This document shows, in pieces, positions 83-61,489 of a stretch of DNA of 64,000 nt. A program made the position numbers and the translations under genes. Location: NCBI GenBank assembly GCA_016794125.1, contig JAEUKT010000004.1, positions 133,460 through 197,459 of the forward strand, written 5' to 3'. Position 1 is the first letter of the stretch, and each line of letters opens with the position of its first letter. A model generated the notes under the pieces. The model saw only the letters and a list, made by a program, of their open reading frames with translations, had not been told where the DNA came from and made no database searches. Origin of the DNA: Alphaproteobacteria bacterium (GTDB taxonomy: Bacteria > Pseudomonadota > Alphaproteobacteria > Micavibrionales > UBA2020).

Positions 83-338
83 GCCCTGTGACCCACCCCT
101 GTAGAACGATTCCGTATCAGCGTTAAAGTAGTATCGTATAGCGAGTCCGGCAACTTTATTTCAACAATTTTTTTCATAAATTAGTGAAGAATAATGTTAA
201 AAATCAAGGCTCTAGCGCAACTTTTTGTGCTGCAATGCACAAACGGCGCGGAATATAAGGCTTTTCACGGGCGCAAAGGCCGTGTTACAACCTCTCACGC
301 CAATAAGGCGCAACTTTTACAAAGAGATTCGGAAAGGG

Positions 339-554
339 GTGATTACCATCGTACAGGTCATCGTACGCGATAACAACGTCGATCAGGCACTGCGCGCATT
401 GAAGAAAAAGATGCAGCGTGAAGGACTGTTCCGCGAAATGAAACTGCGCCGCCACTATGAGAAGCCTTCTGTGAAGAAGGCGCGTGAGCGTTCTGAAGCA
501 GTCCGTCGCCACCGCAAACTTGAGCGCAAGCGCAAGGAAAGGGACGGCGAATAA
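339..554 (+). CDS. rpsU: 30S ribosomal protein S21
   Basis: [46 protein letters not shown]... is a typical S21. The track ORF (225) is over-extended; a GTG at 339 follows GGAAAGG. The exact start is uncertain (339-348). Confidence 0.9.
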
Positions 555-681: not shown

Positions 682-1641
682 CTAGATTTTCAATTTAGCG
701 ATTTGCGATTGCCCCACGGGCTTGTCATCCATCACCGGCACTTGCCCGCCCGCTTTCTTCAGTTCATCAATCGCGCGCGCCAGTACGGCATCGCCGAGCG
801 TGTTGAAGCTTTCGGCCGCGCCCAGCGTTTCCAGCCCGGTTTTCAGGTTTTCCGAGATAATCAGTCGTTCGCGGGATTCGAAATTGAAAATCTCCGTGAT
901 CTTGCGGTTCAGAACGGGCATTTCCGCGATTTTCGCGATGGTGGTGATGTTCATCAGCGCCCATGTCTCGCCCGATGCTGCGGGCTTATTTTCATTCGCG
1001 GGCGGGGCAGCGGCGGCGGGCGCGGCGAGGTCGGCAGCAACCGGCGTGCCACGCACGGTTGTTTCGATGATCTTTTGCAGGCGCGGGTATTTTTCAGCGG
1101 CCAGCTTTGCGGGTGTCACATCATCCTTGCCCGGGATATCGGTGCGCGCGCCTGCCGTGATCAGGAATTCCAGCATCGCGCCGCAGTCGCTGGCGACGGC
1201 ATAATATGTCGCCGTGCGTTCATCCTTGGTATTGCGCACATCCAGCAGCACGCCTTTTTCCACGAGCGCCTTTGCGGCATCAAGGTCACCGTTATGCGCG
1301 GCCCAATGGATGGGATAGGTGTATGAATTGTTATGCGCGTTCACATCGGAACCCGCCGCAATCAGCAGCAGCGCCGCCGCCGATTTATCCTTGGTCAGCG
1401 CCAGCAGCAGCGCGGTGTTGCCGTCGGGGTCGGTCTGCGTCAGGTCGGGCTTGCGGGTGAGGAGGTATTTGATCGCTTCGGTCTGCCCCGCTTCGGATGC
1501 GAGCATCAGCGCGGTTTTGCCTTCGGGGTTTTTCATGTCGATGGGGTATGGCGTTCCCGTCTGCAATCCGTATTTAAGCTCATCAAGATCGCCGGATGTT
1601 GCGGCTGCAAAGAAGGTCTTCTTCGTGCTGATGAATGCCAT
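682..1641 (-). CDS. Ankyrin-repeat protein with Ala/Pro linker and conserved C-terminal TEIFNFESRER module (paralog 1)
   Basis: Repeated G.TALMLA/ G.TALLLA/ HWAAHNGDLD ankyrin motifs. The C-terminal ~75 aa are shared with the next two genes. Confidence 0.85.
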   Translation of the reverse strand: MAFISTKKTFFAAATSGDLDELKYGLQTGTPYPIDMKNPEGKTALMLASEAGQTEAIKYLLTRKPDLTQTDPDGNTALLLALTKDKSAAALLLIAAGSDVNAHNNSYTYPIHWAAHNGDLDAAKALVEKGVLLDVRNTKDERTATYYAVASDCGAMLEFLITAGARTDIPGKDDVTPAKLAAEKYPRLQKIIETTVRGTPVAADLAAPAAAAPPANENKPAASGETWALMNITTIAKIAEMPVLNRKITEIFNFESRERLIISENLKTGLETLGAAESFNTLGDAVLARAIDELKKAGGQVPVMDDKPVGQSQIAKLKI

Positions 1642-1746
1642 GTGGTAAGTCGTTTTCCCCGCGTTGTTTGAAGGTGTTGGGGAATTATCCCAACCGCGTG
1701 CAAAACGGTCAAGAGGTATTATGCTACCTCACTGTAATCATTGGAT

Positions 1747-1956
1747 TTAAACCTTGGCCACGCTCATTTTTTCAAGCAACGAGCCCATTTCTTTCAGTAA
1801 TCGAACGACACGTTCGCGGTCGCTCCCAATTCTTGTTTGGAACTCGAAAATATCGATTCCATTGCAAATTTCATTGAGCGCGGCGGTTAAAATTAAAAGT
1901 TCTTCGTGCGTCATAACCGTCTGCGACTGATCAGGCGCGATATTTACAATATTCAT
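1747..1956 (-). CDS. Small hypothetical protein (69 aa) inside the ankyrin array
   Basis: Only ORF in a lower-GC gap between ankyrin paralogs. Normal amino-acid composition, no recognisable motif. Confidence 0.45.
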   Translation of the reverse strand: MNIVNIAPDQSQTVMTHEELLILTAALNEICNGIDIFEFQTRIGSDRERVVRLLKEMGSLLEKMSVAKV

Positions 1957-1971
1957 GGCTCACCTAAATAA

Positions 1972-2922
1972 TTAAACGCGGAACGGCTTCGACGGACCGT
2001 TTTGCGAAGGATTGCCGCGCTTGCCGATCACATCGGATTCATTCGCTTCGCCGCCCAGCTTCACGAATTCGGCCAGCGCCTTGCGCAGCGCGGCTTCGGT
2101 GATCGCGTCGAAACTTTCGGGCGGCATCGTGGTTTCCACGCCGCTGCGCGTGTTTTCGTTGATGACGGTGCGCTCGCGGGATTCGAAATTGAAAATCTCG
2201 GTCAGGCGGCGGTTGATGTCGGGGATATCGCCGATATGCGTCACCTGATGCTCGCCCGTGCGCAGCCAGCGGTCGTTGCCGCTATAGGCGGGCGCTGCTG
2301 CTTCTGCGGCGGCGGGTTCGTTTTTCGCGACGGGGGTTTCAAGTATCTTTTGCAGATGCGCGCCCTTGGCGGTTGCGATATCCAGCTGTGTCTGGCCCTT
2401 TTTGTCGGGCATGTCGGTGCGCGCGCCGGATTGCAGCAGGAACTCCACAACATTCGCATGGCCCTGGATGACCGCCCAATGCAGCGGGGTGTAGCCGTTA
2501 TTGACGATCACGGTGTCAAGGTTCGCGCCATAGCTGACCAGCATTTTCACCATGTCGATATCGCCCTGATGCGCGGCGAAATGGAGCGGCGTGATGTAAT
2601 CCGCCGCATGGGCGTTTACGTCCGCGCCGCGCTTGATCAGAACCTGCGCCGCGTCGCGCTGCTTGTTGATCAGGGCAAGCGTCAGCGGCGTGTGGCCTTC
2701 CTTGTCCGGTGTATTGGCGTTGAGGCCGAATTTCAGCATAGTATTGAGGATCGCGTCATGGCCGAGCTTTGCGGCATGGGCGACGGCGGTCATACCCGCT
2801 TCGTCGCGCGCGTTCAAATCGACCTTGCGGCTATTGTAATAGTATTCCTTCACGTACCGCGTGACGGTTTTCTCGTCATTGTCCTTGACCGCCTGATGGA
2901 ACTTTTTGACGCTGTCGAACAT
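1972..2922 (-). CDS. Ankyrin-repeat protein with the conserved C-terminal TEIFNFESRER module (paralog 2)
   Basis: Ankyrin motifs (GMTAVAHAAKLGH, GHTPLTLALIN, TPLHFAAHQGDIDMV, YTPLHWAVIQGH); same C-terminal module. Confidence 0.85.
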   Translation of the reverse strand: MFDSVKKFHQAVKDNDEKTVTRYVKEYYYNSRKVDLNARDEAGMTAVAHAAKLGHDAILNTMLKFGLNANTPDKEGHTPLTLALINKQRDAAQVLIKRGADVNAHAADYITPLHFAAHQGDIDMVKMLVSYGANLDTVIVNNGYTPLHWAVIQGHANVVEFLLQSGARTDMPDKKGQTQLDIATAKGAHLQKILETPVAKNEPAAAEAAAPAYSGNDRWLRTGEHQVTHIGDIPDINRRLTEIFNFESRERTVINENTRSGVETTMPPESFDAITEAALRKALAEFVKLGGEANESDVIGKRGNPSQNGPSKPFRV

Positions 2923-2923
2923 G

Positions 2924-4039
2924 TTACGGCAGCCTCGCGGTTTTGTTCAGGTTGCGGCGCGTGATTTGCGTGTCATCGACCGTCCCGCCCAGATTGCGAT
3001 ACGCAGCGGCGGCCTTTTGCAGCGCCGCTTCCTCGATGGTATCGAAGCTTTGGGGGGCTGCCATGTTTTCCGCGCCGGTGCGCAGGTTTTCGGATATCAC
3101 GATGCGCTCGCGGCTCTCGAAATTGAAAATTTCGGTCAGTTTGCGCTCCAATGCGGGATAGATGCCGACCTGCGCTACTTTCGCGTCGCCCATGCGCAGC
3201 CATGTTTCGGTCGCGGCCTCCGCCGTTTCCGGCATGTCATAGCCGGGACGCACGGGTTTTTCGCGCTGCTCCAGCAGGTACGCGATGGCGTCGTTGTTGC
3301 GGTCACGCGCCAGCTGCAGCGCGGTCTGGCCGCGGTTGTTTTTAATATGCGCATCCGCGCCCTGTTCCAGCAGAAATTCAACCATCTGCATGCGGTTGTA
3401 ATAAACCGCCCATTGCAGCGGGGTATAGCCGTGCTGGCGGTCGCGTTCGTCGATCTCCAGCCCTTTTTCCAGCAGCAGCCTTGCGGTTTCCTCCGCGCCC
3501 TGCTGTGCGGCAAGGTGCAGCAGCCCGTGGCCGTCGGAATCCTGCAGGTCGGTTTTCGCGCCGGCCTCGATCAGTTTTTTGATGATGTCGGTGCGGCCAT
3601 AGCGCACGGCGTTCAGCAGCGGCTTGTCGCGGTCGGGATCGGCCTTCGCGGCCAGCAGGATATCGACCGCAACGCCGCTGGACCGCGCCGATGCCATCGA
3701 CAGCGCGGTCGATCCGCCATGCAGTTCGGCGTTCACATCCGCGTTGGCGGCAATCAGGCGGCGCAGGGTATCGATGCGCCCGCCCGAACTGGCGGCGACC
3801 GCCAGCGGGGTATAGCCGTGGTTGTTGTGACCCTCGATATCCGCGCCGGCGGCCAGCAGCGCGTCGATCACGGCGTTCTTGCCGTGCTTGACGGCGATAT
3901 GCAGGGCGTAATCGCCGTTACGGTCGGTCACCTTCAGGTATTCGCGCGCATGCTTGCTGGAGAGATAGCTCTGCAACGTCTCCATATCGCCGCGCGCGGC
4001 AGCCTTCAGGAATCCGTTATTGGTGTGCATCAGCGGCAT
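2924..4039 (-). CDS. Ankyrin-repeat protein with the conserved C-terminal TEIFNFESRER module (paralog 3, ~7 repeats)
   Basis: Ankyrin motifs (GDYALHIAVKHGK, GYTPLAVAASSG, GSTALSMA, GHGLLHLAAQQG, GYTPLQWAVYYN, GQTALQLA); same C-terminal module. Only 1 nt separates it from paralog 2. Confidence 0.85.
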   Translation of the reverse strand: MPLMHTNNGFLKAAARGDMETLQSYLSSKHAREYLKVTDRNGDYALHIAVKHGKNAVIDALLAAGADIEGHNNHGYTPLAVAASSGGRIDTLRRLIAANADVNAELHGGSTALSMASARSSGVAVDILLAAKADPDRDKPLLNAVRYGRTDIIKKLIEAGAKTDLQDSDGHGLLHLAAQQGAEETARLLLEKGLEIDERDRQHGYTPLQWAVYYNRMQMVEFLLEQGADAHIKNNRGQTALQLARDRNNDAIAYLLEQREKPVRPGYDMPETAEAATETWLRMGDAKVAQVGIYPALERKLTEIFNFESRERIVISENLRTGAENMAAPQSFDTIEEAALQKAAAAYRNLGGTVDDTQITRRNLNKTARLP

Positions 4040-4193
4040 CGCGGGTTTCGTTCCTTGGGGAATCTTGGAGTAGGGGAACTATAGAAAATAGGGATTACTA
4101 TGACAAGGCGGAATCGGTGTATTTTTGTCATAATAACACAGCGCGTGACAGGAATCCTGCGGCTCTCTATGCTGCAGCATCAGGCAGGGCAAA

Positions 4194-4793
4194 GTGGCGA
4201 CATATCAGGAAATTTTCGGGCTGGCGGCGTTCGCCATCGGGTTGTGGGGCACAGCGGTTTATATCGCGTCGATCTTCCGCGGCGAAACGCGGCCGCATGT
4301 CTATACGCATCTGGTCTGGGGGCTGGTCACGCTGATCGCTTTTCTGGGGCAGCTGGCCGACAAAGCGGGGCCGGGGGCATGGGCGCTCGGCATCACGGCA
4401 GCGGCCTGTTTGTTTCAGGCCGCACTCGCGCTGAAATGGGGCGAGAAAAACATCACGCGCGGTGACAAGCTGTCACTTGTCGCGGCTGTTGTTGCGGTCG
4501 TGCCGTGGGTGCTGACGGATGATCCGTTACTCTCCGTCGTGCTGGCCTCCATCATCAGCGGCGTCGCCTTCTTCCCGACCATCCGCAAATCATGGACAAA
4601 ACCGCGTGAAGAAAACCTGATCGCCTACATGATCGCGAATGTGAAACTCGGGCTGTCACTTGTCGCACTCACGAATTTCACGGTGACAACGCTGGTCTAT
4701 CCGGTGTCGTCGATCGTTATTAACACGGCGTTTGTGGTGTTATGTCTCTACCGCCGCGCGGCCATGGCGCGGTCGGCAGCGGTTGCGGCGTAA
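4194..4793 (+). CDS. Hypothetical polytopic membrane protein
   Basis: GTG start after AGGG. About six hydrophobic segments; no family recognised. Confidence 0.6.
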   Translation: MATYQEIFGLAAFAIGLWGTAVYIASIFRGETRPHVYTHLVWGLVTLIAFLGQLADKAGPGAWALGITAAACLFQAALALKWGEKNITRGDKLSLVAAVVAVVPWVLTDDPLLSVVLASIISGVAFFPTIRKSWTKPREENLIAYMIANVKLGLSLVALTNFTVTTLVYPVSSIVINTAFVVLCLYRRAAMARSAAVAA

Positions 4794-4798: not shown

Positions 4799-6877
4799 TT
4801 ACAAGCAGAAATTCCCCAGCTTCGGTGCGGGGCCTTTGTTTTTGCTGATGGGTTCGGTCGCCTTCACGAGGAACTCGGCTGCTTTCGGGTCCACCTTGTC
4901 CAGCAGCGGCTTCAGCGTATTGCGGACTTCGGCGTGATAATCGTTCAGCCATTTCAGCTCTTCGGGCGTCAGCAGGGCAGGCTCGACAAGGTTAGTGTCG
5001 ATGGGCGCCATGGTGAGCGTCTTGAAGCCGAGCAGCTTCTTGCCGTCCGCATCCGTCTTGCCTGTGTCGATCACGGTCACAAGGTTTTCGATGCGGATGC
5101 CGTAAGCGCCTTCTTTGTAGAATCCGGGCTCGTTCGACACGATCATGCCGACTTCAAACGGCACGGTGGTGGAGCGCGGCGAAATGCCGGCGGGGCCTTC
5201 ATGCACGGACAAATAGCTGCCCACGCCATGGCCGGTGCCATGCGCGTAATCGAGGCCGACTTCCTTCAATGCCGCGCGTGCCTTGTCGTCCAGAACTTTT
5301 CCAACCGTGCCTTCGGGGAAGACGCTCATCGCGACCTGAATATGGCCCTTCAGCACGCGGGTATTGTGTTCTTTCATCTCCGCCGTCACGTTATCGACCG
5401 CGACAGTGCGGGTGATGTCGGTCGTGCCGTCGAGGTATTGCGCGCCGGAATCGACCAAGTAGATCGGCCCTGCCATCAGCGGCTTGTTGGTTTCGGGCGA
5501 TGAACGGTAATGCACAATCGCGCCGTTGCCGCCCGCGCCGGAAATGGTGTCAAAGCTGAGGCCGCGGAAGTTTTTGCCTTCCTCGCGGAAGGATTGCAGC
5601 AGGTCGGATGCCGTGAGTTCGTCGTATTTCGCCGCCTGTCCCTGACCGCAAATGCTGCTCAGGAAACGCGTGACCGCCACGCCGTCGCGGATATGCGCGT
5701 CAATCGTGCCCTGAATTTCCACCGCGTTCTTTTTCGCCTTCATCAGCTGGATCGGGCTTTTCTCGGCGATGCTCGCGCCGCCCGCCGTCTTGATGATGTC
5801 TTCAACCTTGGCGGGGGAGGAACCGGGATCGACCCAGACCTTTTTCCCCTGTTTCGCCAAGGTTTCGATGCCGCCCGCGAAATCTTCCAGCGGGTGCAGG
5901 CGCACATCGGCGCCGACCCAGGCCTTCGTTTCATCGGTCACCTTGCGGCTGTCGATATACCAGTCCACCGATCCGTCCTTATGCGCGATGGCATAGGAAA
6001 GGGCGAAGGGCGTGCAGGGCACGTCGCCGCCACGGATGTTGAGAAGCCATGCAATTTCTTCCGGCAGCGCGACCGCAATCGCATCCGCGCCCTTGGTTGC
6101 CAGCGTTTTCGCTAGATCGGCGCGTTTTTCATCCGACGCCTTGCCCGCAAATTGCAGCGGATGCGGCACGACGGGGGCGAGCGGTGCGGGCGGCTGGTCT
6201 TTCCATGCCGCGTCCAGCGGGTTGTCCTGCAGCAGCACCAGCGTGCCGCCGGCCTTTTCGACCGCGTCCTTGATGCGCTTCAAATCATTGGGCGTATGCA
6301 CCCAGGGATCAACGCCGAAGCGCGCGCCTGCGGGCAAATTCTTTTCAATCCATTCGACCGGCGACATGGTGGGGATGGGCAGCTGGTTTTCCGACACGTT
6401 GCAGATCTGGAACGATTTGTCGTCAACTTGAGCGCGCGATTGCAGCGTGTAGCGGCCATCGGTAAAGAAACCGGCCTTGTCGTTCAGCACCACCGCGTAA
6501 CCGGCGGAACCGGTGAATTCGGTGATCCATGCAAGGCGTTCGGCGCGCGCGGGCACATATTCGCCCTGAAATTCATCGGCGCGGGGAATGTAGAAACCAT
6601 CCACGCCGCGCTTCGCCATTTCGGCGCGCAGGTCGGCGAGTTTATCCTGCTTCACATTGTTCTGGTTCGCGGCGAGGTGTTCTTTGAGCGCGGCCAGCTG
6701 CTGCACGGTTTCGGCGTTGTCGTTCGTCGTGAACAGGCGCGCCCAGCGCTGCGGCTCGCCAAGGTCGGCGGGGGCGGCGTTGATGCCGCGGAGCGTTTCC
6801 TTCACTTCCTCGACCGTGCGTTTTTCGCCGGATGCGGAGAGGAGGGATTTCAGGTGCTCGTCGCCTTTGTAGCTCAT
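4799..6877 (-). CDS. pepP: Xaa-Pro aminopeptidase (M24B, aminopeptidase P family) with N-terminal extension
   Basis: RLAWITEFTGSAG, YLDGTTDITRT, HGTGHGVGSYLSVHEGP and SNEPGFY motifs. The ATGA overlap with the upstream gene supports the long start. Confidence 0.85.
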   Translation of the reverse strand: MSYKGDEHLKSLLSASGEKRTVEEVKETLRGINAAPADLGEPQRWARLFTTNDNAETVQQLAALKEHLAANQNNVKQDKLADLRAEMAKRGVDGFYIPRADEFQGEYVPARAERLAWITEFTGSAGYAVVLNDKAGFFTDGRYTLQSRAQVDDKSFQICNVSENQLPIPTMSPVEWIEKNLPAGARFGVDPWVHTPNDLKRIKDAVEKAGGTLVLLQDNPLDAAWKDQPPAPLAPVVPHPLQFAGKASDEKRADLAKTLATKGADAIAVALPEEIAWLLNIRGGDVPCTPFALSYAIAHKDGSVDWYIDSRKVTDETKAWVGADVRLHPLEDFAGGIETLAKQGKKVWVDPGSSPAKVEDIIKTAGGASIAEKSPIQLMKAKKNAVEIQGTIDAHIRDGVAVTRFLSSICGQGQAAKYDELTASDLLQSFREEGKNFRGLSFDTISGAGGNGAIVHYRSSPETNKPLMAGPIYLVDSGAQYLDGTTDITRTVAVDNVTAEMKEHNTRVLKGHIQVAMSVFPEGTVGKVLDDKARAALKEVGLDYAHGTGHGVGSYLSVHEGPAGISPRSTTVPFEVGMIVSNEPGFYKEGAYGIRIENLVTVIDTGKTDADGKKLLGFKTLTMAPIDTNLVEPALLTPEELKWLNDYHAEVRNTLKPLLDKVDPKAAEFLVKATEPISKNKGPAPKLGNFCL

Positions 6878-11425: not shown

Positions 11426-13480
11426 ATGGACGAGCTGATGCAGGAATTCCTGACCGACACAACGGAAAAGCTGGGCGCGCTTGACCTCGACCTTGTGCGC
11501 CTTGAAAAAAATCCGAACGACCTTGAACTCATCGGGCGCATCTTCCGCCTTGTGCATACCGTGAAGGGCAATTGCGGTTTTCTGGGGCTGCCGCGCCTTG
11601 AAAACGTGACACATCACGCCGAAAGCGTCCTCAGCCAGTACCGCGCCGGTACCGTGCAGGTCACGACGGATTCCGTGTCGCTGATTTTGCAAGCGCTCGA
11701 CCGTATCAAGGGCATCGTGGGCGGCATCGCGCAAACGGGCGTGGAACCGGCGGGCGACGACCGCGCCCTGATCGGCCTTTTGAACACGGAGGCGTCATCG
11801 CGCAAGCCGGTGCCGGAGGCCGTGAACGCCTTCAGCGCGGCGATGGATGATCTGTCCGCAAAATCCCTGCGCATCGGCGTCGATACACTGGAGGACATGA
11901 TGACGCTGATGGGCGAACTGGTGCTGGCGCGCAACCAGCTATTGCCCCATATGCGCGGCGAATTGCACCAGCCGCTGCAACGCCTCGATAAAACCGTATC
12001 GGCGCTCCAGCAAAGCATGCTGAAGGCGCGCATGCAGCCGGTTGGCAATTTATGGGGCAAGCTGCCCCGCCTTGTGCGCGACATGGCGATCGACCTTGGC
12101 AAGAAAATCCGGCTGGAAATGCAGGGCGGCGCGACCGAAATCGACCGGCAGGTGCTGGAACTGATCCGCGATCCGCTGACGCATCTGCTGCGCAACGCCG
12201 CGGGCCACGGCATCGAAAAACCGGCCGTGCGTGTCGCGAACGGCAAGCCGCCCGAAGGCGTGATTTTGCTGGCTGCGCGCCATGAAGGCGGGCAGGTGGT
12301 GATCGATGTGTCGGACGACGGGCGCGGCCTTGACGAAGCGGCGATCCTGAAAAAAGCCGTCGACACCGGGCTTGTGACCGCCGCACGCGCGCAGGCGCTA
12401 AGCCCGCCGCAGGTGCAGCAGCTGGTGTTCGCGCCGGGGTTCAGTACGGCTGCCGAAGTGACCGCCGTGTCGGGACGCGGGGTGGGCATGGATGTGGTGC
12501 GCGCCAATATCGAAAAAATCGGCGGCACGGTCGAGCTGTCATCCGTGCCTGGCAGGGGTGCTGTCGTCACGCTGCGCATTCCGCTCACGCTCGCCATCAT
12601 TCCCGCGCTGGTCGTGAAAACCGACGGGCAGCGATACGCCGTTCCGCGCAACGCCGTCCGCGAAGTGGTCGCGCTGAAACGCTGCGGCGTGCATAAAATC
12701 CGGCGTATCGACAGCGCAAAATTCCTCGACCTTCGCGGCCAGATGGTGCCGCTGTTGTCCCTGCAGGCCGTGTTCGGCACGGACGATCTGGCCGCCAAGG
12801 CGCTGAACCCCTATGCCGTGATCCTGTATGCGGGCGGCGGCGGGGTGTTCGGCATCATTTGCGACGGGATCGCCAATGACGAAGAAATCGTGGTAAAGCC
12901 GCTGTCGCCCGCATTGCAGCGCCTACGGCTTTTTTCCGGCAACGCAGTGCTGGGCGACGGCGGCGTGGTGCTGATCCTCGACCCTTCCGGCATCGTGCGT
13001 GAATCGAATATCGAACCCGCGCCCAAACAAGCCGACGACACGCCGGCAATCGCGGCGCGCCGGCATCCCGCGCTGCTGTTCCGCGCGGGCGCAGGCGCCG
13101 ACCGCGCCGTCGCGCTGGAATACCTGTCGCGCATCGAACGCATCGACATGACGACGGTGGAAAACGCAGGCGGCAGGCAGGTCATCCCTTATCATGACGG
13201 GCTGCTGCCGCTGATCGCCTATCCGGGCTGCGCCGCGCGGGGCAGGCGGCAGCCGGTCTTGGTGATCCGCGACGGCGACGCGCAGGCGGGTGTCATTTTC
13301 GACAGCGTGCTGGGCATGGTCGATGCGCTGCCCGATGTGGCGCTGAAACAGGAAACGGGATCGGGGTCGCTGGGCAGCGCGCTTGCCGGCGGCCATGCGG
13401 TCGAAGTGATGGACGCGCCGTGGCTGATACGCCGCGCGCAGGAAGGACTGCGGCATGACGATCCGGATATTGTCGTTTAA
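11426..13480 (+). CDS. cheA: Chemotaxis histidine kinase CheA
   Basis: Hpt (FRLVHTVKGNCGFLG), dimerisation domain, HATPase (DDGRGLD, GRGVGMDVV) and C-terminal CheW-like domain. Confidence 0.95.
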   Translation: MDELMQEFLTDTTEKLGALDLDLVRLEKNPNDLELIGRIFRLVHTVKGNCGFLGLPRLENVTHHAESVLSQYRAGTVQVTTDSVSLILQALDRIKGIVGGIAQTGVEPAGDDRALIGLLNTEASSRKPVPEAVNAFSAAMDDLSAKSLRIGVDTLEDMMTLMGELVLARNQLLPHMRGELHQPLQRLDKTVSALQQSMLKARMQPVGNLWGKLPRLVRDMAIDLGKKIRLEMQGGATEIDRQVLELIRDPLTHLLRNAAGHGIEKPAVRVANGKPPEGVILLAARHEGGQVVIDVSDDGRGLDEAAILKKAVDTGLVTAARAQALSPPQVQQLVFAPGFSTAAEVTAVSGRGVGMDVVRANIEKIGGTVELSSVPGRGAVVTLRIPLTLAIIPALVVKTDGQRYAVPRNAVREVVALKRCGVHKIRRIDSAKFLDLRGQMVPLLSLQAVFGTDDLAAKALNPYAVILYAGGGGVFGIICDGIANDEEIVVKPLSPALQRLRLFSGNAVLGDGGVVLILDPSGIVRESNIEPAPKQADDTPAIAARRHPALLFRAGAGADRAVALEYLSRIERIDMTTVENAGGRQVIPYHDGLLPLIAYPGCAARGRRQPVLVIRDGDAQAGVIFDSVLGMVDALPDVALKQETGSGSLGSALAGGHAVEVMDAPWLIRRAQEGLRHDDPDIVV

Positions 13481-18341: not shown

Positions 18342-18921
18342 CGATATCGCGCAGCGCCTGACCGATATGGCAGCCGCCGATTTGCGCAAGCGCGGCGAAC
18401 TGATTGCCGCAGGCACGCTGTTCGACGGATATCATCCCGACATGGAATCGCTGCATATCGCCAACGCAAAAGAACTGGATGAGATTATTGACGCTGTCGG
18501 CTGGCCGCATCGGGGTATCGCGGGCGTTGAGGGTGCGGAAGCCGCATGGCTGATCGCGCAGCACGCCGTCAGCCTGCCGGATTTCCAACGCAAGGTTCTG
18601 CGATTGCTGAAGGAAAACGCGGGCGATGTGCCGCCTGCGCAGATCGCCATGCTGGAAGACCGCATCCGCCGGTTTGAAGGAAAACCGCAACTCTACGGCA
18701 CGCAATTCGACTGGGACGACAACGGCCAGCTGTCGGCGGGCGTGATCGAGGACGAAGCGAATGTCGACCGCCGCCGCGCGAACGTCGGATTGAATTCGCT
18801 GAAAGAACGTACCGAAGAAATGCGCCGCCGCGCGGAAAACGAAGGCGACAAACCGCCCGCCGATATGGCGAAGCGGCGCAAAGATATGGATGCGTGGGCA
18901 AAGAAAGTCGGTTGGCGTTAA
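18328..18921 (+). CDS. Hypothetical protein
   Basis: ATG overlaps the fliJ stop (ATGAGCAAAACTGA). No family recognised. Confidence 0.55.
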   Translation: MSKTDDIAQRLTDMAAADLRKRGELIAAGTLFDGYHPDMESLHIANAKELDEIIDAVGWPHRGIAGVEGAEAAWLIAQHAVSLPDFQRKVLRLLKENAGDVPPAQIAMLEDRIRRFEGKPQLYGTQFDWDDNGQLSAGVIEDEANVDRRRANVGLNSLKERTEEMRRRAENEGDKPPADMAKRRKDMDAWAKKVGWR

Positions 18922-20861
18922 GCCGTCGTGCCCTGCTGGGGCGTGTCGATCGTCACCCATTTCTGCGCGCGGGTCTGGAAGCTGATGCCGCCTTCCATCT
19001 GCGCCTGCGCCAATCCCTTGGCGAAGCTGCCCATCAATTCGCGGCGCATCGATTCGGGCAGCGCGTCGGCGCTGCGCAAAATCAGGTCGAAGGTTTTCTT
19101 GCGCAGCAACCCGTCCAGCTGCATATCGCCCATGCGCGACAGATGCAGGTTGAGGATAAAACGCGTCGGCGGTGCGGCGCGGATATCGTCATTTTCTTCC
19201 GGCGTATCATCCTGTTGCTGGCGGCGGATATAGAATTGCATCTGGCCGATCTCGCCGTCATGCATCATCGGCATGGAAATCGCGCGCCATTCGCCGGATA
19301 CCGGTTCTTTCGACTGCGCCGAGATCTTGCCGAAATCGCCGGTCAAACGGTCGGCCAGCGCGGATTTTCCCGCCTGCCGCAGTGATTGCAGCGTGCCTTC
19401 GCCCAGCCAGCTTTCCACCGCGCCGCTGCGGAGCGCTGCAAGAAAGAACAATGCCGTCGGCACAAGTCGCGGCGTGGGGCTGGGGATGCTGTTCTGTATC
19501 GCCTGCGCAGTCTGTACGCTGATCGCGCCCAAGCTATCCATGGTTTCCTGCAATGCGGGCCATGTGGCGCTCCAGAGCGGTGTGAAGCCGCTGGGCGCGG
19601 GCGCCTGACGCAGCGCATCCATCTGGAACGTTGTCATCACCTGTTGCGGAGTCATCGGTGTCGGTTCAAACAATACTTGCGTGCCGACCGGCAGCGGGGC
19701 TGCGGTGCGGAGCAGGAAGCTCTGTCCGCCCGCGCGGATCGACGGCTGGCCGTTGGTGGTCACGAATTCAACCTCGCCCAGTATCTGCCCCTGTTGCGGC
19801 ACGGGCGGCGTTTCACCCTGCGGCGTGACGTTCACGATGCGCAGCTGGCTCATGCTGGGGATCAACCCCTGCAGGCCCTGCGGCATATCGGTTTTAATGC
19901 TGCCGCCCATGCGCGGCATCAGCGGCGCTGCTGCGCTGTTGCCGTTTTGCAGGCTTTCGATCAATGGCAGCAACCCCTTCAGCGCGCCAACGCCTGTGGG
20001 GGGCGGGGCATTGCCCGTGCCTTTGCCGGCGGGAACGGGCAGGGGCGGCATGTCGGTTTCCGGTGCGGCGGTTTGCGGCGCGGGCGTGGCAGAGGGCGGA
20101 TTTTGCGGCTGCGTTTGCGGCTGCGCAGGTGTTTGTGTTTGCGCGGGCGCCGGTGGTGGCAGCTGGATCATCTGCGACAGCTTCGCCGCCACTTCCGGCT
20201 TGGCAAGGTAAGTCAAAATCGCCTGTTGCTGCTCTGGCGGCAGTTTTTGCAAGGCGGCCAGTTTATCTGGCGCGGTTGCCAACTGCTGGATCACATCATT
20301 CGGTACGGGCAGGGGCTTGGGCAGCTGGCGCAGCATATCGGGTGTCAGTCGTTCCAGCACCGCGGCTGCGCGTTGCAGGGTGATATTCGCTTCAACAGGG
20401 CGCGACGGGGGCGCGGCATCATCCGTCAGCACCAGCGCGGTTACGATATCCCCGGGTTTCAGCGGCGGGGCGGACGGCGTTTTCACTGCGGCGGGCGCTG
20501 GCAGGTCGGCGTTTTCGGTTGCGGCGATCTTCTCGCGCAGCAATGCAATCTGCGCCCTTAATTTGCCATCCCTGCCGCGCGTCAGTTCGACCGTCACGGT
20601 TGCGTCCTTCGACATCGGCTTGTCGCTGTTCACCACAATCTCGCCGCGCGCGGTTGCGATGCGCGTTTCGCCCGTGTCGCGGTTTTGCGACACGACGCGC
20701 CCCTCCAGCTTCACAGGCGGGGTGCCGATATCGGCGGGGGCTTGTTTGACAGGCGCGGCTTCGTCCAGCAGGCGTTGTGTGCCTTGCGGTTTCGCAGTCG
20801 GCGTGGCGGCGTTCAGCACGTTCGCGGCGGGCGTTTTCGGCGGGATGGATGAATCGCTCAT
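18918..20861 (-). CDS. Proline-rich protein with a FliK-like C-terminal region (last gene of the fliF...flhG operon)
   Basis: Long P/A/Q-rich centre. The C-terminus RFILNLHLSRMGDMQLDGLLRKKTFDLILRSADALPESMRRELMGSFAKGL resembles the hook-length-control domain (L.L.P..LG.V.V.L....L...). Confidence 0.6.
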   Translation of the reverse strand: MSDSSIPPKTPAANVLNAATPTAKPQGTQRLLDEAAPVKQAPADIGTPPVKLEGRVVSQNRDTGETRIATARGEIVVNSDKPMSKDATVTVELTRGRDGKLRAQIALLREKIAATENADLPAPAAVKTPSAPPLKPGDIVTALVLTDDAAPPSRPVEANITLQRAAAVLERLTPDMLRQLPKPLPVPNDVIQQLATAPDKLAALQKLPPEQQQAILTYLAKPEVAAKLSQMIQLPPPAPAQTQTPAQPQTQPQNPPSATPAPQTAAPETDMPPLPVPAGKGTGNAPPPTGVGALKGLLPLIESLQNGNSAAAPLMPRMGGSIKTDMPQGLQGLIPSMSQLRIVNVTPQGETPPVPQQGQILGEVEFVTTNGQPSIRAGGQSFLLRTAAPLPVGTQVLFEPTPMTPQQVMTTFQMDALRQAPAPSGFTPLWSATWPALQETMDSLGAISVQTAQAIQNSIPSPTPRLVPTALFFLAALRSGAVESWLGEGTLQSLRQAGKSALADRLTGDFGKISAQSKEPVSGEWRAISMPMMHDGEIGQMQFYIRRQQQDDTPEENDDIRAAPPTRFILNLHLSRMGDMQLDGLLRKKTFDLILRSADALPESMRRELMGSFAKGLAQAQMEGGISFQTRAQKWVTIDTPQQGTTA

Positions 20862-22672: not shown

Positions 22673-24757
22673 TCACGTTATTTGCGCGAAGGTGCGGATT
22701 TTCGCGCGCGGGTGGATTTCGTTCTGCGACATCACGATCGTTTGCGGGCGGAACCGTTCGATGATGGAGCGCACATAGGGGCGGATGCCGGGGCTGGTCA
22801 GCAGCACGGGGCTTTCGCCCTTCATCGCCATGTCTTCATATACCGTGCGCACAGATTGAATGAATTGCTGCAGGCGGGACGGCGCCATGGCGAGCTGTTT
22901 TTCCTCGCCCTGTCCTACCAGTGCTTCGGAGAAAGCCTGTTCCCATTCGCCGGACAATGTCACGAGCGGCAGGATGCCCGCATTGTTGCTGTTCTGGTCG
23001 CAGATCTGGCGGGCAAGGCGCGCGCGCACATGTTCGGTGATCATGGTGACGTTGCTGGTAAAGCCTGTCGCCTCCGCCACGCCTTCCAGAATGGTGGGCA
23101 GGTCGCGGATGGAGATGCGCTCGGAAACCAAGTTCTGCAATACGCGCTGCAGGCCGGTGACGGTGATTTTCGTCGGGATGACATCGGCGACCAGTTTCTG
23201 GTGCGTCTTGGGCAGTTCGTCCAGCAGCTTCTGCGTTTCGGCATAGGACAGCAGGTCGGGCATGTTGTCCTTGATGACTTCGGTGATATGCGTGGTCACG
23301 ACCGTTGCGGGATCGACGACGGTGTAGCCGCGGAAATGCGCTTCCTCGCGGTAATCGGGGCTGATCCACATGGCGGGCAGGCCAAAGGTGGGTTCGCGCG
23401 TCGCTTCGCCGGGGATTTCAATTTTATCGCCCGTCGGGTTCATGCAGAGCAGCATGTCGGGGCGGATATCGCCCTTGCCGGCCTCTATTTCCTTGATGCG
23501 CACGACGTATGAATTGGCGGGCAGCTGCAGGTTATCCTGGATACGCACGGAAGGCAGGATAAAGCCCATATCCTCCGCCAGCTGGCGGCGCAGGCCCTTG
23601 ATCTGGTCGGTCAGGCGGCCTTTTTCGGGGTTGTTCACAAGCGGCAGCAGGCCATAGCCGAGTTCGACGCGGATATTGTCGATCGCCAATGCTTTCGAAA
23701 TCGGTTCTTCCGCGACCGGCGCCTTGGCAATCGCCGCCTGTTCTTCGTTTGCTTTCGCCACGGCGGTTTTCTTGCGGGTTTCGAGCGTGTTGTAGGCGAA
23801 GACGCCCGCCGTTGCCGCCATCAGGAGGAAGGGCAGGGCGGGGATGCCGGGGATGACGGCCAGCACGCCCATCAACACGGCGCTCATGATCAGCGCCTGC
23901 GGGTAATTGCTGAGCTGCGAGAAAACGGCCTTTTCCGCCGAGCCGCTGACACCCGCCTTGGAGACGAGCATACCGGAGGCGATAGAGACGATCAGCGCGG
24001 GGATTTGCGTGACAAGGCCGTCGCCGATGGTCAGGTGGGTGTAGAAATGCGACGCGTCCTCGAAGCTCAGGTCTTTTTGCACCATGCCGATGACCATGCC
24101 GGCCACCACGTTGATGAAGACGATCAGCAGGCCCGCGATCGCGTCGCCGCGCACGAATTTGGCCGAGCCGTCCATCGCGCCGAAGAAGGTGCTTTCCTGC
24201 TCCAGTTGGGAGCGGCGGAAGCGCGCCTCTTTTTCGTCGATCATGCCGGCCGAAAGGTCGGCATCGATCGCCATCTGCTTGCCGGGCATCGCATCCAAAC
24301 TGAAACGCGCCGCGACTTCGGCGATGCGGCCCGCGCCCTTGGTGATGACGACGAAGTTGACGATCGTCAAAATCGCGAAGACGATGATACCGATGACGAA
24401 ATTGTCGCCCATGACGAAACTGCCGAAGGCCTCGATCACATGGCCGGCCGCGTCCTTGCCTTCATGGCCGTGCGCCAGAATTAATCGTGTGGAAGCAAGG
24501 TTGAGCGCAAGCCTTATCATGGTCGCGACCAGCAGGATGGTCGGGAACGACGACAGTTCCAGCGGTTTTTCGATAAATAGCACCGTCATCAGGATCAGGA
24601 CGGAGAAAGTGAGCGACAGCGCAAGGCAGGCATCCAGCAGCCAGGACGGCATCGGCAAAATCAGGACCGTCAGGATCGCGATAATGCCGAAGGCAAAGAT
24701 CACGTCGCTGCGAAGCCTGAAATTGCTGCGGAAACCTGTTGCGCCTGCCTCTGCCAT
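22673..24757 (-). CDS. flhA: Flagellar export gate protein FlhA
   Basis: Full-length FlhA: FPTILLVATMIRLALN, GAMDGSAKFVRGDA and cytoplasmic domain. Confidence 0.95.
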   Translation of the reverse strand: MAEAGATGFRSNFRLRSDVIFAFGIIAILTVLILPMPSWLLDACLALSLTFSVLILMTVLFIEKPLELSSFPTILLVATMIRLALNLASTRLILAHGHEGKDAAGHVIEAFGSFVMGDNFVIGIIVFAILTIVNFVVITKGAGRIAEVAARFSLDAMPGKQMAIDADLSAGMIDEKEARFRRSQLEQESTFFGAMDGSAKFVRGDAIAGLLIVFINVVAGMVIGMVQKDLSFEDASHFYTHLTIGDGLVTQIPALIVSIASGMLVSKAGVSGSAEKAVFSQLSNYPQALIMSAVLMGVLAVIPGIPALPFLLMAATAGVFAYNTLETRKKTAVAKANEEQAAIAKAPVAEEPISKALAIDNIRVELGYGLLPLVNNPEKGRLTDQIKGLRRQLAEDMGFILPSVRIQDNLQLPANSYVVRIKEIEAGKGDIRPDMLLCMNPTGDKIEIPGEATREPTFGLPAMWISPDYREEAHFRGYTVVDPATVVTTHITEVIKDNMPDLLSYAETQKLLDELPKTHQKLVADVIPTKITVTGLQRVLQNLVSERISIRDLPTILEGVAEATGFTSNVTMITEHVRARLARQICDQNSNNAGILPLVTLSGEWEQAFSEALVGQGEEKQLAMAPSRLQQFIQSVRTVYEDMAMKGESPVLLTSPGIRPYVRSIIERFRPQTIVMSQNEIHPRAKIRTFAQIT

Positions 24758-28180: not shown

Positions 28181-29884
28181 TCAATTTTCCTGCGACATCC
28201 ACTGGCGAATGACCGAAACGGTTTCATTCGGGTGGTTGGTCACGAGGTCTGAAATTTTCTGCACCGACGAGGCCTTTACTTTTCCCTCGACCGACGACAT
28301 GTCGATCATGGATTCAAGCTCCGACGGGCCGCTGATCATGCCGGCTGTGCCGCCGGGGCCTGCCAGCTGCGCCTGTTGCGGGCCGCCGGCCAGCATCGGC
28401 GCATCGCCGCCGCCTTCGCCTGCCGTGCGCGGAGCGCGGGCAGCAGCCGCAAAATGTATCGCCAGCGGGCGCAGGACGAGCAGGATCACAAGGATCGCCA
28501 CAAGGCTGAGCGCCATTGTTTCCGCCATGCCGAGGATGTCGGATTTGGGGAAGCCGAAAATGGTGTCGTTGGCGACGGGCGAGGGGTCGAACATCTCGCT
28601 CTGCGCGAACTGCATGTTGACGACCTCGACCGTGTCGCCGCGGCTTTCGTCGTAACCGACCGCCGATTTGACGAGCGACGCGATCTTGGCGAGTTCATCC
28701 GCCGAGCGGGGCGTGTATTTCATCGGCGCAGCCCAGTCGGCGGGCGCATCTTTCGGTTTTTGCGCGGCGGTATCGGGCGCATAGCTGCCATCGACGAGGA
28801 CGGAGATGGAAAGCTTTTCAATCTCGCCGCCTTCGCGCACGAGCGTCTCCACCGTCTTGGTGATTTCGTAGTTCGTGGTTTCCTCGGTGCGGTTATTTTT
28901 TGAACCGGCCTGAGCGGCATTGCCGCCGTTCGGCAGGCCGGGCAGGTTGTTGGCGACTGTGACCGCGCCGTTGCCGTTCGACGAAGCGGAGGTGTCGGAA
29001 TTTTCTTCCGTCACGCTCTGTGTCGAGCGCACGACCTGGCCGTCGGGGTTATAGCTTTCGGAATTGCGGTTCAGCACGTCGAAATTCATCTTGGCGGTGA
29101 CGGCGGCGCGGACTTTTTCAAAGCCGACCACGCGGCCCACGATATCTTCGATCGACGCCTTGGTGCGGGTTTCATAGGTTTTGCGCATGTCGTCGGCGTT
29201 GCGGCTCAGGCTGTCGCGGCTTTGCTCGTCCTCGGCGCGGGCAAGCACGTTGCCGCTCTGGTCGACGACGGCGACGGAATTGGCCTTCAATTGCGGCACG
29301 GCGGCGGCCACTAGCTGGCGGATCGCCATGATCTGTTCGTTGCCGATATTGCCGGGGCTGCGCAGGTTCACGAAAACCGAAGCCGAAGCGGGCTGGCGGT
29401 CGCGGCTGAACAGTTCGCGCTGCGGCAGCACCAGCTGCACGCGGGCGGAGCGTACCTGGTCGATCATGCCGATGGTGCGGGCAAGCTCGCCCTCCAGCGC
29501 ACGCTTCGCCATGCTGTTTTGCTCGAAGCTCGTGACGCCGAACTTGCCTTTCTGGTCATACAACTCGTTGCCCATCGCGCCGTTGCGGGGCAGGCCTTCG
29601 GCCAGCAGCAGCATTTTGGCGCGGGCGATATCCTTGTGCGGAACCGAAATTTTGGTGCCGTCGTCGCTCAAGGCATACGGGATGCTGGAATTATCCAGCT
29701 TGGCGGAAATTTCCGTCGCGTCGGATATCGACAACCCGTTGTAAAGCGGGCTGAGCGAAGGGGCGCTTGAGCGTACGGCGATAAAGACGAAGAAGATGAT
29801 CAGGCCAAAGAAGGTGGCCAGCATCATGATCAGGCGTCCGGGACCCAAATTTTTCAGCGATTCCAGTAACGAATCCAAAGTCAT
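28181..29884 (-). CDS. fliF: Flagellar MS-ring protein FliF
   Basis: N-terminal TM segment, YscJ/FliF domain (LY.GLS..DA.EI...L), C-terminal TM segment. Confidence 0.95.
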   Translation of the reverse strand: MTLDSLLESLKNLGPGRLIMMLATFFGLIIFFVFIAVRSSAPSLSPLYNGLSISDATEISAKLDNSSIPYALSDDGTKISVPHKDIARAKMLLLAEGLPRNGAMGNELYDQKGKFGVTSFEQNSMAKRALEGELARTIGMIDQVRSARVQLVLPQRELFSRDRQPASASVFVNLRSPGNIGNEQIMAIRQLVAAAVPQLKANSVAVVDQSGNVLARAEDEQSRDSLSRNADDMRKTYETRTKASIEDIVGRVVGFEKVRAAVTAKMNFDVLNRNSESYNPDGQVVRSTQSVTEENSDTSASSNGNGAVTVANNLPGLPNGGNAAQAGSKNNRTEETTNYEITKTVETLVREGGEIEKLSISVLVDGSYAPDTAAQKPKDAPADWAAPMKYTPRSADELAKIASLVKSAVGYDESRGDTVEVVNMQFAQSEMFDPSPVANDTIFGFPKSDILGMAETMALSLVAILVILLVLRPLAIHFAAAARAPRTAGEGGGDAPMLAGGPQQAQLAGPGGTAGMISGPSELESMIDMSSVEGKVKASSVQKISDLVTNHPNETVSVIRQWMSQEN

Positions 29885-35818: not shown

Positions 35819-35885
35819 GGCTGCCGCCTTCCTGATGCGGATAGTCGGCCAGCCGTCAGGCGGAATCAAGTCCAAAAATGAAGCC

Positions 35886-35927
35886 AAAAAATCAGGGGCT
35901 CCCCGGCTTTCTGCCAGCGGAGCCCCC
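35886..35927 (-). terminator. Rho-independent terminator after flgE
   Basis: Minus strand: GGGGGCTCC...GGGGAGCCCC then TGATTTTTTGG. A second hairpin (CCTTCCCC/GGGGAAGG) lies just upstream. Confidence 0.7.
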
Positions 35928-35970
35928 GTGCCTTCCCCCTTGTCGGAAGGGGAAGGGTATTATTCCTTTA

Positions 35971-37548
35971 TTATCTCAGTTGCAGCAGTTCGGCCGTCAT
36001 CTGGTCTGCGGTCGTGATGACCTTGGTGTTGGCCGAATAGGCGCGCTGCGTGACGATCATTTTGGAGAATTCATCCGCGAGATCGACGTTGGACTGTTCC
36101 AGCGCGCCGCCTTCGATATAGCCCGCGCCGCCGGTGTTCGCTGCCACCACATCCGGATCACCCGATGTGTCGGACACGCGGAACACGGTGCCGGTCAGCG
36201 CCGACAGGCCGTCGGGGTTGATGAAGTTGGCGATGCCCAGCTGATAGATCTCGCGCGACAGGCCGTTCGAGAATTGCGCGCTGACGATGCCGTCGCGGCT
36301 GACGGAGACGCCCGTGCGGTAGCCGACCGGAGAGCCGTTCTGGTCGGACTGCGCGGTATAGGCGCCGGTTTGCTGCGTCAGCCCTGCGATATCCAGGTTG
36401 AACGCGGCCGAGGTGCCGGCGGGCGTGGTCCACGATACGGGGCCAAGCGCCAGGTTGACCTGGCCGCCGGTGACGGGCGCGTTCAGCGTGCCGTCGCTGT
36501 TGAAGTTGATGGACTGGCCGGTCGGCAGCAGGTCGCCTGTTGCGGTCGTGACCTGGATATCCCACCAGCCGTTGGGGTTTTCGGTGACCGGTGCTGCGCC
36601 CGCGACGGGTGTCGCCGAAGTCGTGACCGTGGTGCCCGCGGGAACGCCCAGCGTGTTGAGCGCAAGCGGCGTGCCGGAACCGTCGGTCAGCGTCACTTCC
36701 GACAGCGCGACTTCGTTCTGGATCACGAGGAAGCCGTTGCTGTCCAGCTGTGCGTTGATGCCGGGAACCGCGTTCAGGTCGGTCAACAATTTGTTGACGT
36801 CGCCATCGAGGTTGATGGTGGTGGCGCCGAAGCCCGCATCGACGTCGAAGCTGTCGGTGCCGGGAACGAAGTTGCCCGATTGCGCGCGCAGATCGACGTT
36901 GCCGGTGACGGTGCCCGCGGTCGGCGCATGTTTCTTGAAATTAACCGTGATGGTGCGGGGGTTGCCGCCGTCGTCATAAATCGTGATATCGCGGCTGAAG
37001 TCCGACGTATTCGTGCTTACGGCCTGCGCCGCGTTCAGGTTGGCATCCAGCGACACCTGGGTCGTCATCTGCGAAATGCCGCCGCCGGTCAGGTTGACGG
37101 GGACGAGCGTGCTGAGGCTTGCGCCGCCGACGATCGCGCCGTTCTGGTCAAGCGGCCAGCCCTGCAGGATGAAGCCGCCAGTGTTGCGCAGGTTGCCATC
37201 GACATCTTCGCTGAACGAGCCCGCGCGGGTGTAAAGGCGCTCGGCGCCCGCCGCCGTACCGTTCTGCACGACGAAGAAGCCGTTGCCCGACATTGCGAGA
37301 TCGGTGGAGGAGGAGCTTTGCTGCAAGATGCCCTGCAGGCTGACGCGCTGGTTCTGCGTCGCCTTGACGGAACCCGGCGTGTATAGGGTGGAACGGCCAC
37401 TGGTGGTGACGAGGTCGGAGAAAGAAGCGTCGCTGCGTTTGTAGCCGACGGTGCTGACGTTGGCGATGTTGTTCGAGATCATGCCCAGAGATTGGCTCTG
37501 CGCGGTGAGGCCCGAAACGGCGGTGAAGAGTGATCCGAAAACGCTCAT
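35971..37548 (-). CDS. flgE: Flagellar hook protein FlgE
   Basis: MSVFGSLFTAVSGLTAQSQSLGMISNNIANVSTVGYK N-terminus and YSANTKVITTADQMTAELLQLR C-terminus. AGGAG SD before the trimmed start. Confidence 0.95.
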   Translation of the reverse strand: MSVFGSLFTAVSGLTAQSQSLGMISNNIANVSTVGYKRSDASFSDLVTTSGRSTLYTPGSVKATQNQRVSLQGILQQSSSSTDLAMSGNGFFVVQNGTAAGAERLYTRAGSFSEDVDGNLRNTGGFILQGWPLDQNGAIVGGASLSTLVPVNLTGGGISQMTTQVSLDANLNAAQAVSTNTSDFSRDITIYDDGGNPRTITVNFKKHAPTAGTVTGNVDLRAQSGNFVPGTDSFDVDAGFGATTINLDGDVNKLLTDLNAVPGINAQLDSNGFLVIQNEVALSEVTLTDGSGTPLALNTLGVPAGTTVTTSATPVAGAAPVTENPNGWWDIQVTTATGDLLPTGQSINFNSDGTLNAPVTGGQVNLALGPVSWTTPAGTSAAFNLDIAGLTQQTGAYTAQSDQNGSPVGYRTGVSVSRDGIVSAQFSNGLSREIYQLGIANFINPDGLSALTGTVFRVSDTSGDPDVVAANTGGAGYIEGGALEQSNVDLADEFSKMIVTQRAYSANTKVITTADQMTAELLQLR

Positions 37549-49421: not shown

Positions 49422-49430
49422 GACCAGGTC

Positions 49431-56330: not shown

Positions 56331-56412
<82 letters not shown>

Positions 56413-61349: not shown

Positions 61350-61489
61350 GGGCGTGGTTTTCCCATGAATTCAGGGGATTGTCAATGTTGCCATAATGTT
61401 AGATGGCGGGTTTTACCATTGCTTAACACTGGCATGGGAAACTGGTGTCAGCGCCGCATCCGGCGCTGTTCCAAGGGTATTTCACTTTC

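Follow-up and report, generated by a model that had tools for sequence, protein, structure and literature searches.

A tandem array of ankyrin-repeat genes sharing a previously unrecognised C-terminal module in a Micavibrio-related alphaproteobacterium

A 64,000-nt stretch of DNA from an alphaproteobacterium of the Micavibrionales (GenBank assembly GCA_016794125.1, contig JAEUKT010000004.1, positions 133,460 to 197,459 of the forward strand), the whole of which is referred to as "the window" in this study, carries three consecutive ankyrin-repeat genes, A, B and C. All three are on the minus strand in the six-frame list of open reading frames (ORFs), with gene A being the first of an A-B pair in which a single nucleotide separates the stop of A from the start of B (Table 1). 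An earlier reading of the letters, the original prediction, had assigned one architecture to the three proteins, and this is what the ORFs encode: ankyrin repeats, then an Ala/Pro linker ending in a conserved Trp, and then a C-terminal module that has the quoted sequences and contains an invariant TEIFNFESRER block. The repeats were recognized by Pfam Ank_2 above the gathering thresholds in all three proteins (E-values 5.5e-24, 6e-32 and 1.5e-65, the last for gene A), and their paired helices are visible in the full-length AlphaFold2 model of the gene B protein. The predicted number of five to seven repeats holds for the 316- and 319-aa proteins (approximately 5 to 6) but not for the 371-aa protein, which carries about 8. 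The module of gene A matches the family's hidden Markov model (HMM) at 9e-38, and gene A has orthologues in four related metagenome-assembled genomes (MAGs; L001, L003, L004 and L007). Over their full lengths, proteins A, B and C are only 31-36% identical.

The module comprises about 85 residues and is followed by an acidic turn (ADEDxV) and a basic tail of about 14 residues. Searches of Pfam, NCBIfam, PADLOC, PHROG and the PDB sequences gave no match to it. When the C-terminal ~95 residues were compared with Pfam, either within the proteins or alone as had been proposed with the original prediction, nothing was found, the only matches being to the ankyrin repeats in the N-terminal two-thirds. 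Even at E <= 1, 62 diverse modules gave no recurrent Pfam family (14 weak families, all singletons). PADLOC matches to PDC-M72A, Ankyrin and MzaA cover the ankyrin repeats only and were rejected for the module. The predicted structure, also proposed with the original prediction, was obtained with high confidence: a model of the gene B module alone, built by AlphaFold2 from a 62-sequence alignment, has a predicted local distance difference test score (pLDDT) of 91.6 and a predicted TM-score (pTM) of 0.78. In this model, four long antiparallel strands (residues 2-8, 11-18, 23-30 and 35-42) and a short fifth one (48-50) form a meander sheet packed against one helix (61-73), followed by a short helix (80-84) and a low-confidence tail (pLDDT 57-80 in the AlphaFold2 models). 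In the full-length gene B model (pLDDT 91.5, pTM 0.70), the ankyrin stack (aa 1-195) and the module (aa 216-300) are connected by a disordered linker (approximately aa 200-215, pLDDT below 55). With a confidently modelled module behind a linker of such low pLDDT, the module is predicted to be an autonomous domain on a flexible tether.

A Foldseek search with the module model, made against PDB and BFVD, gave no match at E <= 0.001, and TM-scores did not exceed 0.48. The weak matches are generic meander sheets, including DPP4 propeller blades, the monellin sheet, PUR-alpha repeats and the DnaK substrate-binding domain. A deep profile compared with PDB gave a marginal match to SAG1039 (E 0.012), which raised WXG100/ESAT-6-like proteins as a candidate; this was rejected, as the aligned region corresponds to predicted strands with a pLDDT of about 98 and not to a helical hairpin. 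The order strand-strand-strand-strand-helix also agrees with that of the beta4-alpha nucleic-acid-binding or dimerising units of the PUR/Whirly/PC4 type, in which case the proteins would be ankyrin-coupled DNA or RNA regulators. PUR-alpha repeats are among the best Foldseek matches (8chv_B, E 0.087, TM 0.35) and the tail is basic. However, no match reached even a TM of 0.5, the folded core is acidic (mean net charge -1.9, median pI 5.4), and the module has no sequence similarity to these families. Membership in this fold group was therefore rejected, and a regulator of this type is very improbable. As the original prediction had proposed, the module belongs to no described family; its modelled fold is apparently novel, within PDB and BFVD.

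The most conserved positions of the module are W4, A13, L25, T26, I28, F29, N30, F31, R34, E35, R36, I39, N42, L43, E48, F56, A67, G75 and G76, many of which are polar and lie on or around the beta3-beta4 hairpin. Conservation of this block at the DNA level, to which attention had been drawn earlier, was also found: the 14-mer TCGAAATTGAAAAT occurs exactly three times in the window, at 878, 2183 and 3117, where 0.02 occurrences are expected by chance. Read as its reverse complement, TCGAAATTGAAAAT gives the codons for E-I-F-N-F-E; the adjoining codons differ synonymously, so the motif reflects amino-acid conservation. Gene conversion was rejected as its source, as the codon choice for EIFNFE accounts for the 14-mer.

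The three genes belong to a much larger family. An exhaustive HMMER search of 1.84 billion representatives returned 585 clusters (50% identity) at E <= 1e-3, 238 of them at E <= 1e-10. Word-index protein searches with two module profiles gave only 4 matches each, but such searches are far less sensitive than HMMER and provide no evidence of rarity. The module is always C-terminal, with a median of 2.5 residues between the end of the HMM envelope and the C-terminus in 152 retrieved proteins. Of 148 representatives, 131 carry ankyrin repeats, as do 61 of the 68 copies from genome loci, and neither set contains any other recurrent fusion partner domain. The N-terminal ankyrin stacks range from about 2 to 11 repeats, so that the predicted combination of a constant module with variable ankyrin stacks holds at the scale of the family. 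Named members of the clusters are all metagenomic and annotated as "ankyrin repeat protein" or "hypothetical protein".

When one genome per species was scanned with a sequence pattern, 38 loci were located in 21 MAGs; this is a lower bound on the distribution because the pattern was strict. These MAGs are labelled Alphaproteobacteria, Micavibrio, Rhodospirillaceae or "Bdellovibrionales", the last label being used because the NCBI taxonomy places Micavibrio under Bdellovibrionales. No copies of the module were found on viral contigs or plasmids. Multiple copies are common in the family: one MAG has at least 13 module genes within the fetched loci alone, and another locus (L008) has six in a row. 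The most extreme array seen is on a contig from JGI 3300047160, in which at least 10 consecutive ankyrin genes encoding proteins of about 200 aa follow one another with 8-nt stop/start overlaps (the module was confirmed for one of them, P0113). A divergent form of the module, matching HMM positions ~21-94 and lacking the Trp-containing first beta hairpin, is encoded by three tandem genes in L048 (422-2332, minus strand), and its sequence suggests that a wider superfamily may exist. We found no paper connecting Micavibrio or Micavibrionales with this module family, and the supplements to the M. aeruginosavorus ARL-13 genome do not mention ankyrin. The family is large and restricted to a lineage of uncultured Micavibrio-related Alphaproteobacteria, and it combines a constant domain with variable ankyrin stacks.

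The two parts of these proteins have diverged to different extents. Among paralogues A, B and C, the ankyrin parts are 26-34% identical as compared to 43-57% for the modules, which agrees with the greater ankyrin divergence reported in the original prediction. Among orthologues, the module is under strong purifying selection, with ratios of nonsynonymous to synonymous substitution rates (dN/dS) of 0.07-0.4. A comparison of these ratios between the two parts had also been called for, and the outcome differs between genes. For gene A, dN/dS is 0.07-0.12 in the module versus 0.25-0.78 for the ankyrin stack; in three of the four orthologue pairs, this stack is 51-59% identical (dN/dS 0.47-0.78) versus 84-88% for the module. 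The ankyrin stack of gene A is thus evolving fast. The stacks of B and C, however, are conserved, and the pattern of variable ankyrin and constant module is therefore true across the family and for gene A, but not for every orthologue set. At the same time, a low synonymous rate (dS) was seen in the gene B module (1975-2277), where it is 0.10-0.33, two- to five-fold below that of the B ankyrin part (0.56-0.69). This was not the case for A or C; it could stem from gene conversion, from a constraint on the nucleotides, or from the noise of a small sample (74 codons).

The array is a genuine and old feature of these genomes. Together with its pepP and rpsU flanks, it aligns at 77-87% nucleotide identity to five other MAGs (L001, L002, L003, L004 and L007), and independent Logan assemblies from two sequencing runs contain proteins identical to B in an unchanged gene order. 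All copies in the array are intact and under purifying selection. Together with the low identity among A, B and C, these results refute a duplication artefact of the assembly, against which the original prediction had cautioned, as well as a set of decaying pseudogenes; the probability left to either is negligible. The gene pepP is the commonest neighbour of module genes (13 of 21 genomes), and the site pepP-[Ank-module]-rpsU-POR/DUF6537 is also occupied by two distant members, P0148 and P0152, which are only ~26-29% identical to the window proteins. The number of copies at the pepP-rpsU site varies: L049 and L005 each have one, the window has three, and L050 has five. The occurrence of distant members at the same site in one to five copies indicates that the family is old, vertically inherited and repeatedly duplicated there. 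The three genes are thus old tandem paralogues, and the array has grown by repeated duplication at the ancestral pepP-rpsU site. Flanks of other arrays (FtsJ-like methyltransferase, PGM, ABC transporter, GST and FAA hydrolase) are likewise housekeeping genes or of unknown function. L005 (DASPMW010000127.1) is a 2.6-kb contig binned as "Patescibacteria group bacterium", with pepP-Ank-rpsU synteny and 69-86% nucleotide identity to the window. Its sole array gene is the orthologue of gene C, and it is probably a mis-binned alphaproteobacterial contig.

The original prediction had raised the idea that these proteins are secreted effectors. Neither a signal peptide nor a transmembrane segment was found in any of the 135 full-length members, and no secretion, toxin or mobility genes flank the arrays in the loci examined. 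Secretion genes were sought in the 64-kb window and in the 16-kb loci: no dedicated type III, type IV or type VI secretion system (T3SS, T4SS, T6SS) was seen among the window ORFs sampled, and no T4SS with a coupling protein was seen in either the window or the loci. A cultured relative, M. aeruginosavorus ARL-13, is reported to possess T1SS, T2SS, Sec and Tat, with T3SS and T4SS being absent (PMC3189940). The genes are also at a vertically inherited housekeeping locus and not on an island. The effector idea is therefore unsupported, and on present evidence the array proteins are predicted to be cytoplasmic.

Some features of the family are still those that a translocated effector would have. 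In such a case, the C-terminal domain plus the basic tail would act as a bipartite export signal for a contact-dependent secretion machine, with the ankyrin stacks binding prey or host proteins. Ankyrin expansions are typical of effector repertoires, and the size of the paralogue expansions (13 or more copies in a single MAG, 10 or more in a single array) fits this, as does the fast-evolving stack of gene A. The module is invariably at the extreme C-terminus, and the net charge of the tail averages +2.8 to +3.0 and is positive in 96% of members. With no N-terminal signal present, export would require a non-Sec route. The closest parallels are the Bartonella BID domain with its cationic tail (Beps) and the Xanthomonas/Stenotrophomonas XVIPCD, both of which are likewise conserved extreme-C-terminal domains of ~100 aa followed by a flexible charged tail, and the charged, flexible tail expected of a bipartite T4SS signal is indeed present here. 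However, the module matches neither BID, XVIPCD nor other known signal domains in sequence, and Pfam and NCBIfam do not place it in the BID or XVIPCD families; the N-terminal parts are all ankyrin binders and not diverse enzymes, and there are no paired immunity genes. T4SS genes were not seen in the vicinity, ARL-13 reportedly has no such system, and T1SS signals do not typically take the form of a tightly folded beta domain. The Legionella/Coxiella Dot/Icm ankyrin effectors (NCBIfam T4SS_Ank*) have eukaryotic-like ankyrin repeats in common with the array proteins and are their top NCBIfam matches, but the scores (20-96 bits versus curated cut-offs of 300-1400 bits) reflect generic repeats only, and MzaA, another generic repeat match in NCBIfam, is also far below its curated cut-off. 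Membership in the Dot/Icm equivalogs (NF0430xx) was rejected, the best scores being 72-96 bits with cut-offs of at least 500-600 bits. Taking both sides together, we regard translocated effectors as unlikely. A more specific version, in which the beta-rich domain with its cationic tail would be the signal for an undescribed contact-dependent route by which Micavibrio-like epibionts deliver ankyrin binders by the dozen into prey or host cells, is distinctly unlikely. If true, the secretion-signal domain would be new, and the set of ankyrin effectors would be the first one directed against bacterial prey.

We tentatively favour a different explanation, namely that the family consists of interchangeable modular adaptors acting in the cytoplasm. 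According to this proposal, the constant domain would be a docking module for one partner common to all paralogues, while the ankyrin stacks would recruit differing clients, the family thereby forming a set of interchangeable adaptors. The partner-binding surface is proposed to be the polar beta3-beta4 hairpin (T-x-I-F-N-F-x-S-R-E-R ... E-N-L), which is the most conserved feature of the module. This is consistent with the observation that polar residues T26, N30, R34, E35, R36, N42 and E48 are conserved beyond the needs of the fold alone, and we infer a binding surface from their clustering around the hairpin. The same logic, variable ankyrin stacks with a constant C-terminal docking module, is seen in the Ank-PRANC proteins (F-box-like) of poxviruses, Wolbachia, Orientia and Rickettsia and in the eukaryotic Ank-SOCS-box (ASB) proteins. 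Their modules (PRANC, F-box and SOCS-box) are short helical units that attach to ubiquitin ligases. The present module, in contrast, is an ~85-aa, beta-rich domain without sequence or fold similarity to them, and to our knowledge the bacteria that carry it have no ubiquitin system. Membership in an Ank-PRANC or F-box-like family was rejected, as none of the 62 modules matched such a Pfam family at E <= 1 and a sheet plus a helix is predicted.

Several considerations weigh against modular adaptors, and we hold this explanation as possible and somewhat short of probable: the common docking partner of the module is putative; the cytoplasmic placement was deduced solely from the missing Sec/Tat signals and the missing secretion genes nearby; the invariable C-terminal position and the basic tail would fit a C-terminal export signal as well; secretion systems were looked for in the 64-kb window and the 16-kb loci only; B and C have conserved ankyrin stacks (dN/dS 0.09-0.19), so that diversification does not extend to every paralogue; and the predatory lifestyle of the organism is taken from MAG labels.

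The gap between B and C bears on yet another explanation. As had been predicted, it is lower in GC than its surroundings: it holds an insertion with a GC content of 42% and a third-codon-position GC content (GC3) of 49%, versus 59-63% and 71-79% for the three ankyrin genes. The insertion contains a gene for a 69-aa protein, ORF69, which the original prediction had called an orphan. This is not the case, as ORF69 has 41 homologues. Copies 81-88% identical (P0159-P0161) are found on other metagenomic contigs, and one of them, P0159, directly follows B at the same place on two contigs. More distant homologues (43-55% identity) are encoded by Pantoea, Rahnella, Cedecea, Lelliottia, Serratia and Ewingella. 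The one in Pantoea ananatis begins 3 nt past the end of a PT-VENN CdiA C-terminal toxin region (CdiA-CT), which is part of a full 3742-aa CdiA or stands as an orphan CT fragment. A member of this toxin CT family ends 3-8 nt ahead of the homologue in Pantoea, Lelliottia (70% identity) and a JGI metagenome, and a toxin CT remnant lies upstream of it in Serratia/Rahnella. In all the Enterobacterales cases, toxin CT sequence is found directly upstream of the homologue. The homologues thus occupy the position expected of an immunity gene in contact-dependent growth inhibition (CDI) loci, a small ORF within a few nt of the CdiA-CT stop, and by these genomic criteria the family would comprise the immunity genes of one CdiA-CT toxin family. 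No cognate CdiA-CT toxin was found in the window or the related loci. ORF69 may be a horizontally acquired, orphan CDI-immunity-like gene; if it is indeed an acquired immunity gene, its carrier depends on remaining attached to other bacteria, and the gene might protect it from CDI toxins of neighbours or prey. The module was rejected as a toxin partner of ORF69, as the CdiA-CT domains upstream of its homologues are unlike the module or proteins A, B and C, and ORF69 is absent from the orthologous arrays.

These observations raise the notion that the arrays are polyimmunity loci, in which ankyrin stacks of the Imm-Ank type would neutralise toxins of competitors or prey, with the constant module serving to place the stacks or to pass the bound toxin on. 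Ankyrin repeats are a recognised immunity class and are found in tandem "polyimmunity loci" (Zhang et al. 2012; PMC3482391), and Bdellovibrio uses the ankyrin protein Bd3460 for self-protection (PMC4686830). The array proteins resemble both in being ankyrin binders without a signal peptide, predicted to be cytoplasmic, and in forming tandem arrays of diverged paralogues, which are common in the family; one other immunity-type gene, ORF69, is inserted within the window array. However, no toxin gene adjoins any array examined, the conserved C-terminal domain is an addition not seen in known immunity proteins, and an ancestral single copy at a conserved housekeeping locus speaks against a cassette-like origin. 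The ORF69 insertion is present only in the closest relatives of the window, being absent from L001, L003, L004 and L007, and its association with the array may be due to chance. We consider an immunity function improbable.

In relatives without the insertion, the B-C spacer (L001:7187-7328, L003:7194-7334 and L007:7180-7322, compared with 1642-1971 of the window) contains an inverted repeat, CTGAAAAC-N-GTTTTCAG, which is not found in L004. The CTGAAAAC-N-GTTTTCAG hairpin looks like a terminator for the A-B pair that was replaced by the insertion in the window. A promoter-like TTGACC/GATAAT element, located 3' of this inverted repeat and upstream of C, is kept in all the relatives compared.

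Table 1. Positions of the ankyrin array, its parts and its neighbours in the window
Feature	Position	Strand	Remarks
rpsU (ribosomal protein S21)	225..554	+	Conserved convergent flank of the array; Ribosomal_S21 match
Gene C, 319 aa	682..1641	-	Approximately 5-6 ankyrin repeats, Ala/Pro linker, module with tail
Gene C module and tail (aa 224-319)	685..972	-	Core at 865-897
Promoter-like site upstream of gene C	1684..1712	-	TTGACC-17-GATAAT; consensus scan; kept in L001, L003, L004, L007
Low-GC insertion	1738..1971		42% GC; absent from orthologous arrays of L001, L003, L004, L007; alignment breakpoints
ORF69, 69 aa	1747..1956	-	Between B and C; AGGTGAG ribosome-binding site; 41 homologues
Gene B, 316 aa	1972..2922	-	N-terminal helical cap and 5 ankyrin repeats (aa 1-195), linker, module (aa 216-300), basic tail
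Gene B module and tail (aa 216-316)	1975..2277	-	Core at 2170-2202
Gene A, 371 aa	2924..4039	-	About 8 ankyrin repeats, linker, C-terminal module, basic tail; ORF list
Gene A module and tail (aa 277-371)	2927..3211	-	TEIFNFESRER core at 3104-3136
Promoter-like site upstream of gene A	4078..4106	-	TTGTCA-17-TATAGT; consensus scan only
pepP (Xaa-Pro aminopeptidase, M24)	4799..6877	-	Conserved flank of the array; Pfam annotation in L039

The true start of rpsU is probably internal to the ORF listed in Table 1. A gene for a 199-aa hydrophobic protein without a Pfam or PADLOC match (4194-4793, plus strand) lies between the array and pepP, and it is conserved at this place in L039 and L041, the closest relatives. 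Elsewhere in the window are genes for CheA (11426-13480, plus), FlhA (22673-24757, minus), FliF (28181-29884, minus) and a CHASE2-adenylate/guanylate cyclase (61445-63700, plus). Judging from the CheA, FlhA and FliF genes, the organism is predicted to be motile and chemotactic, as expected of a Micavibrio-like bacterium. The window also carries a 6S RNA (52935-53091, plus; Rfam, 51.9 bits), tRNA-Pro(TGG) (55144-55220, plus) and tRNA-Arg(TCT) (56336-56412, plus). Long ORFs of 500-990 aa without a Pfam match are present at 46785-49421 (plus), 46761-49727 (minus), 18918-20861 (minus) and 35878-37386 (plus); the first two share their DNA on opposite strands, so that only one of the pair can be genuine.

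Poxviruses, Rickettsiales and eukaryotes are known to have ankyrin multigene families with a constant C-terminal module, and there the module reveals which machine the proteins join. The window presents the same design in a poorly studied and probably predatory alphaproteobacterial lineage. A family definition for the module would link hundreds of proteins now annotated as "ankyrin repeat protein" or "hypothetical protein", and the partner of the module would show whether bacteria living on other bacteria possess a new adaptor hub or, alternatively, a new export signal.

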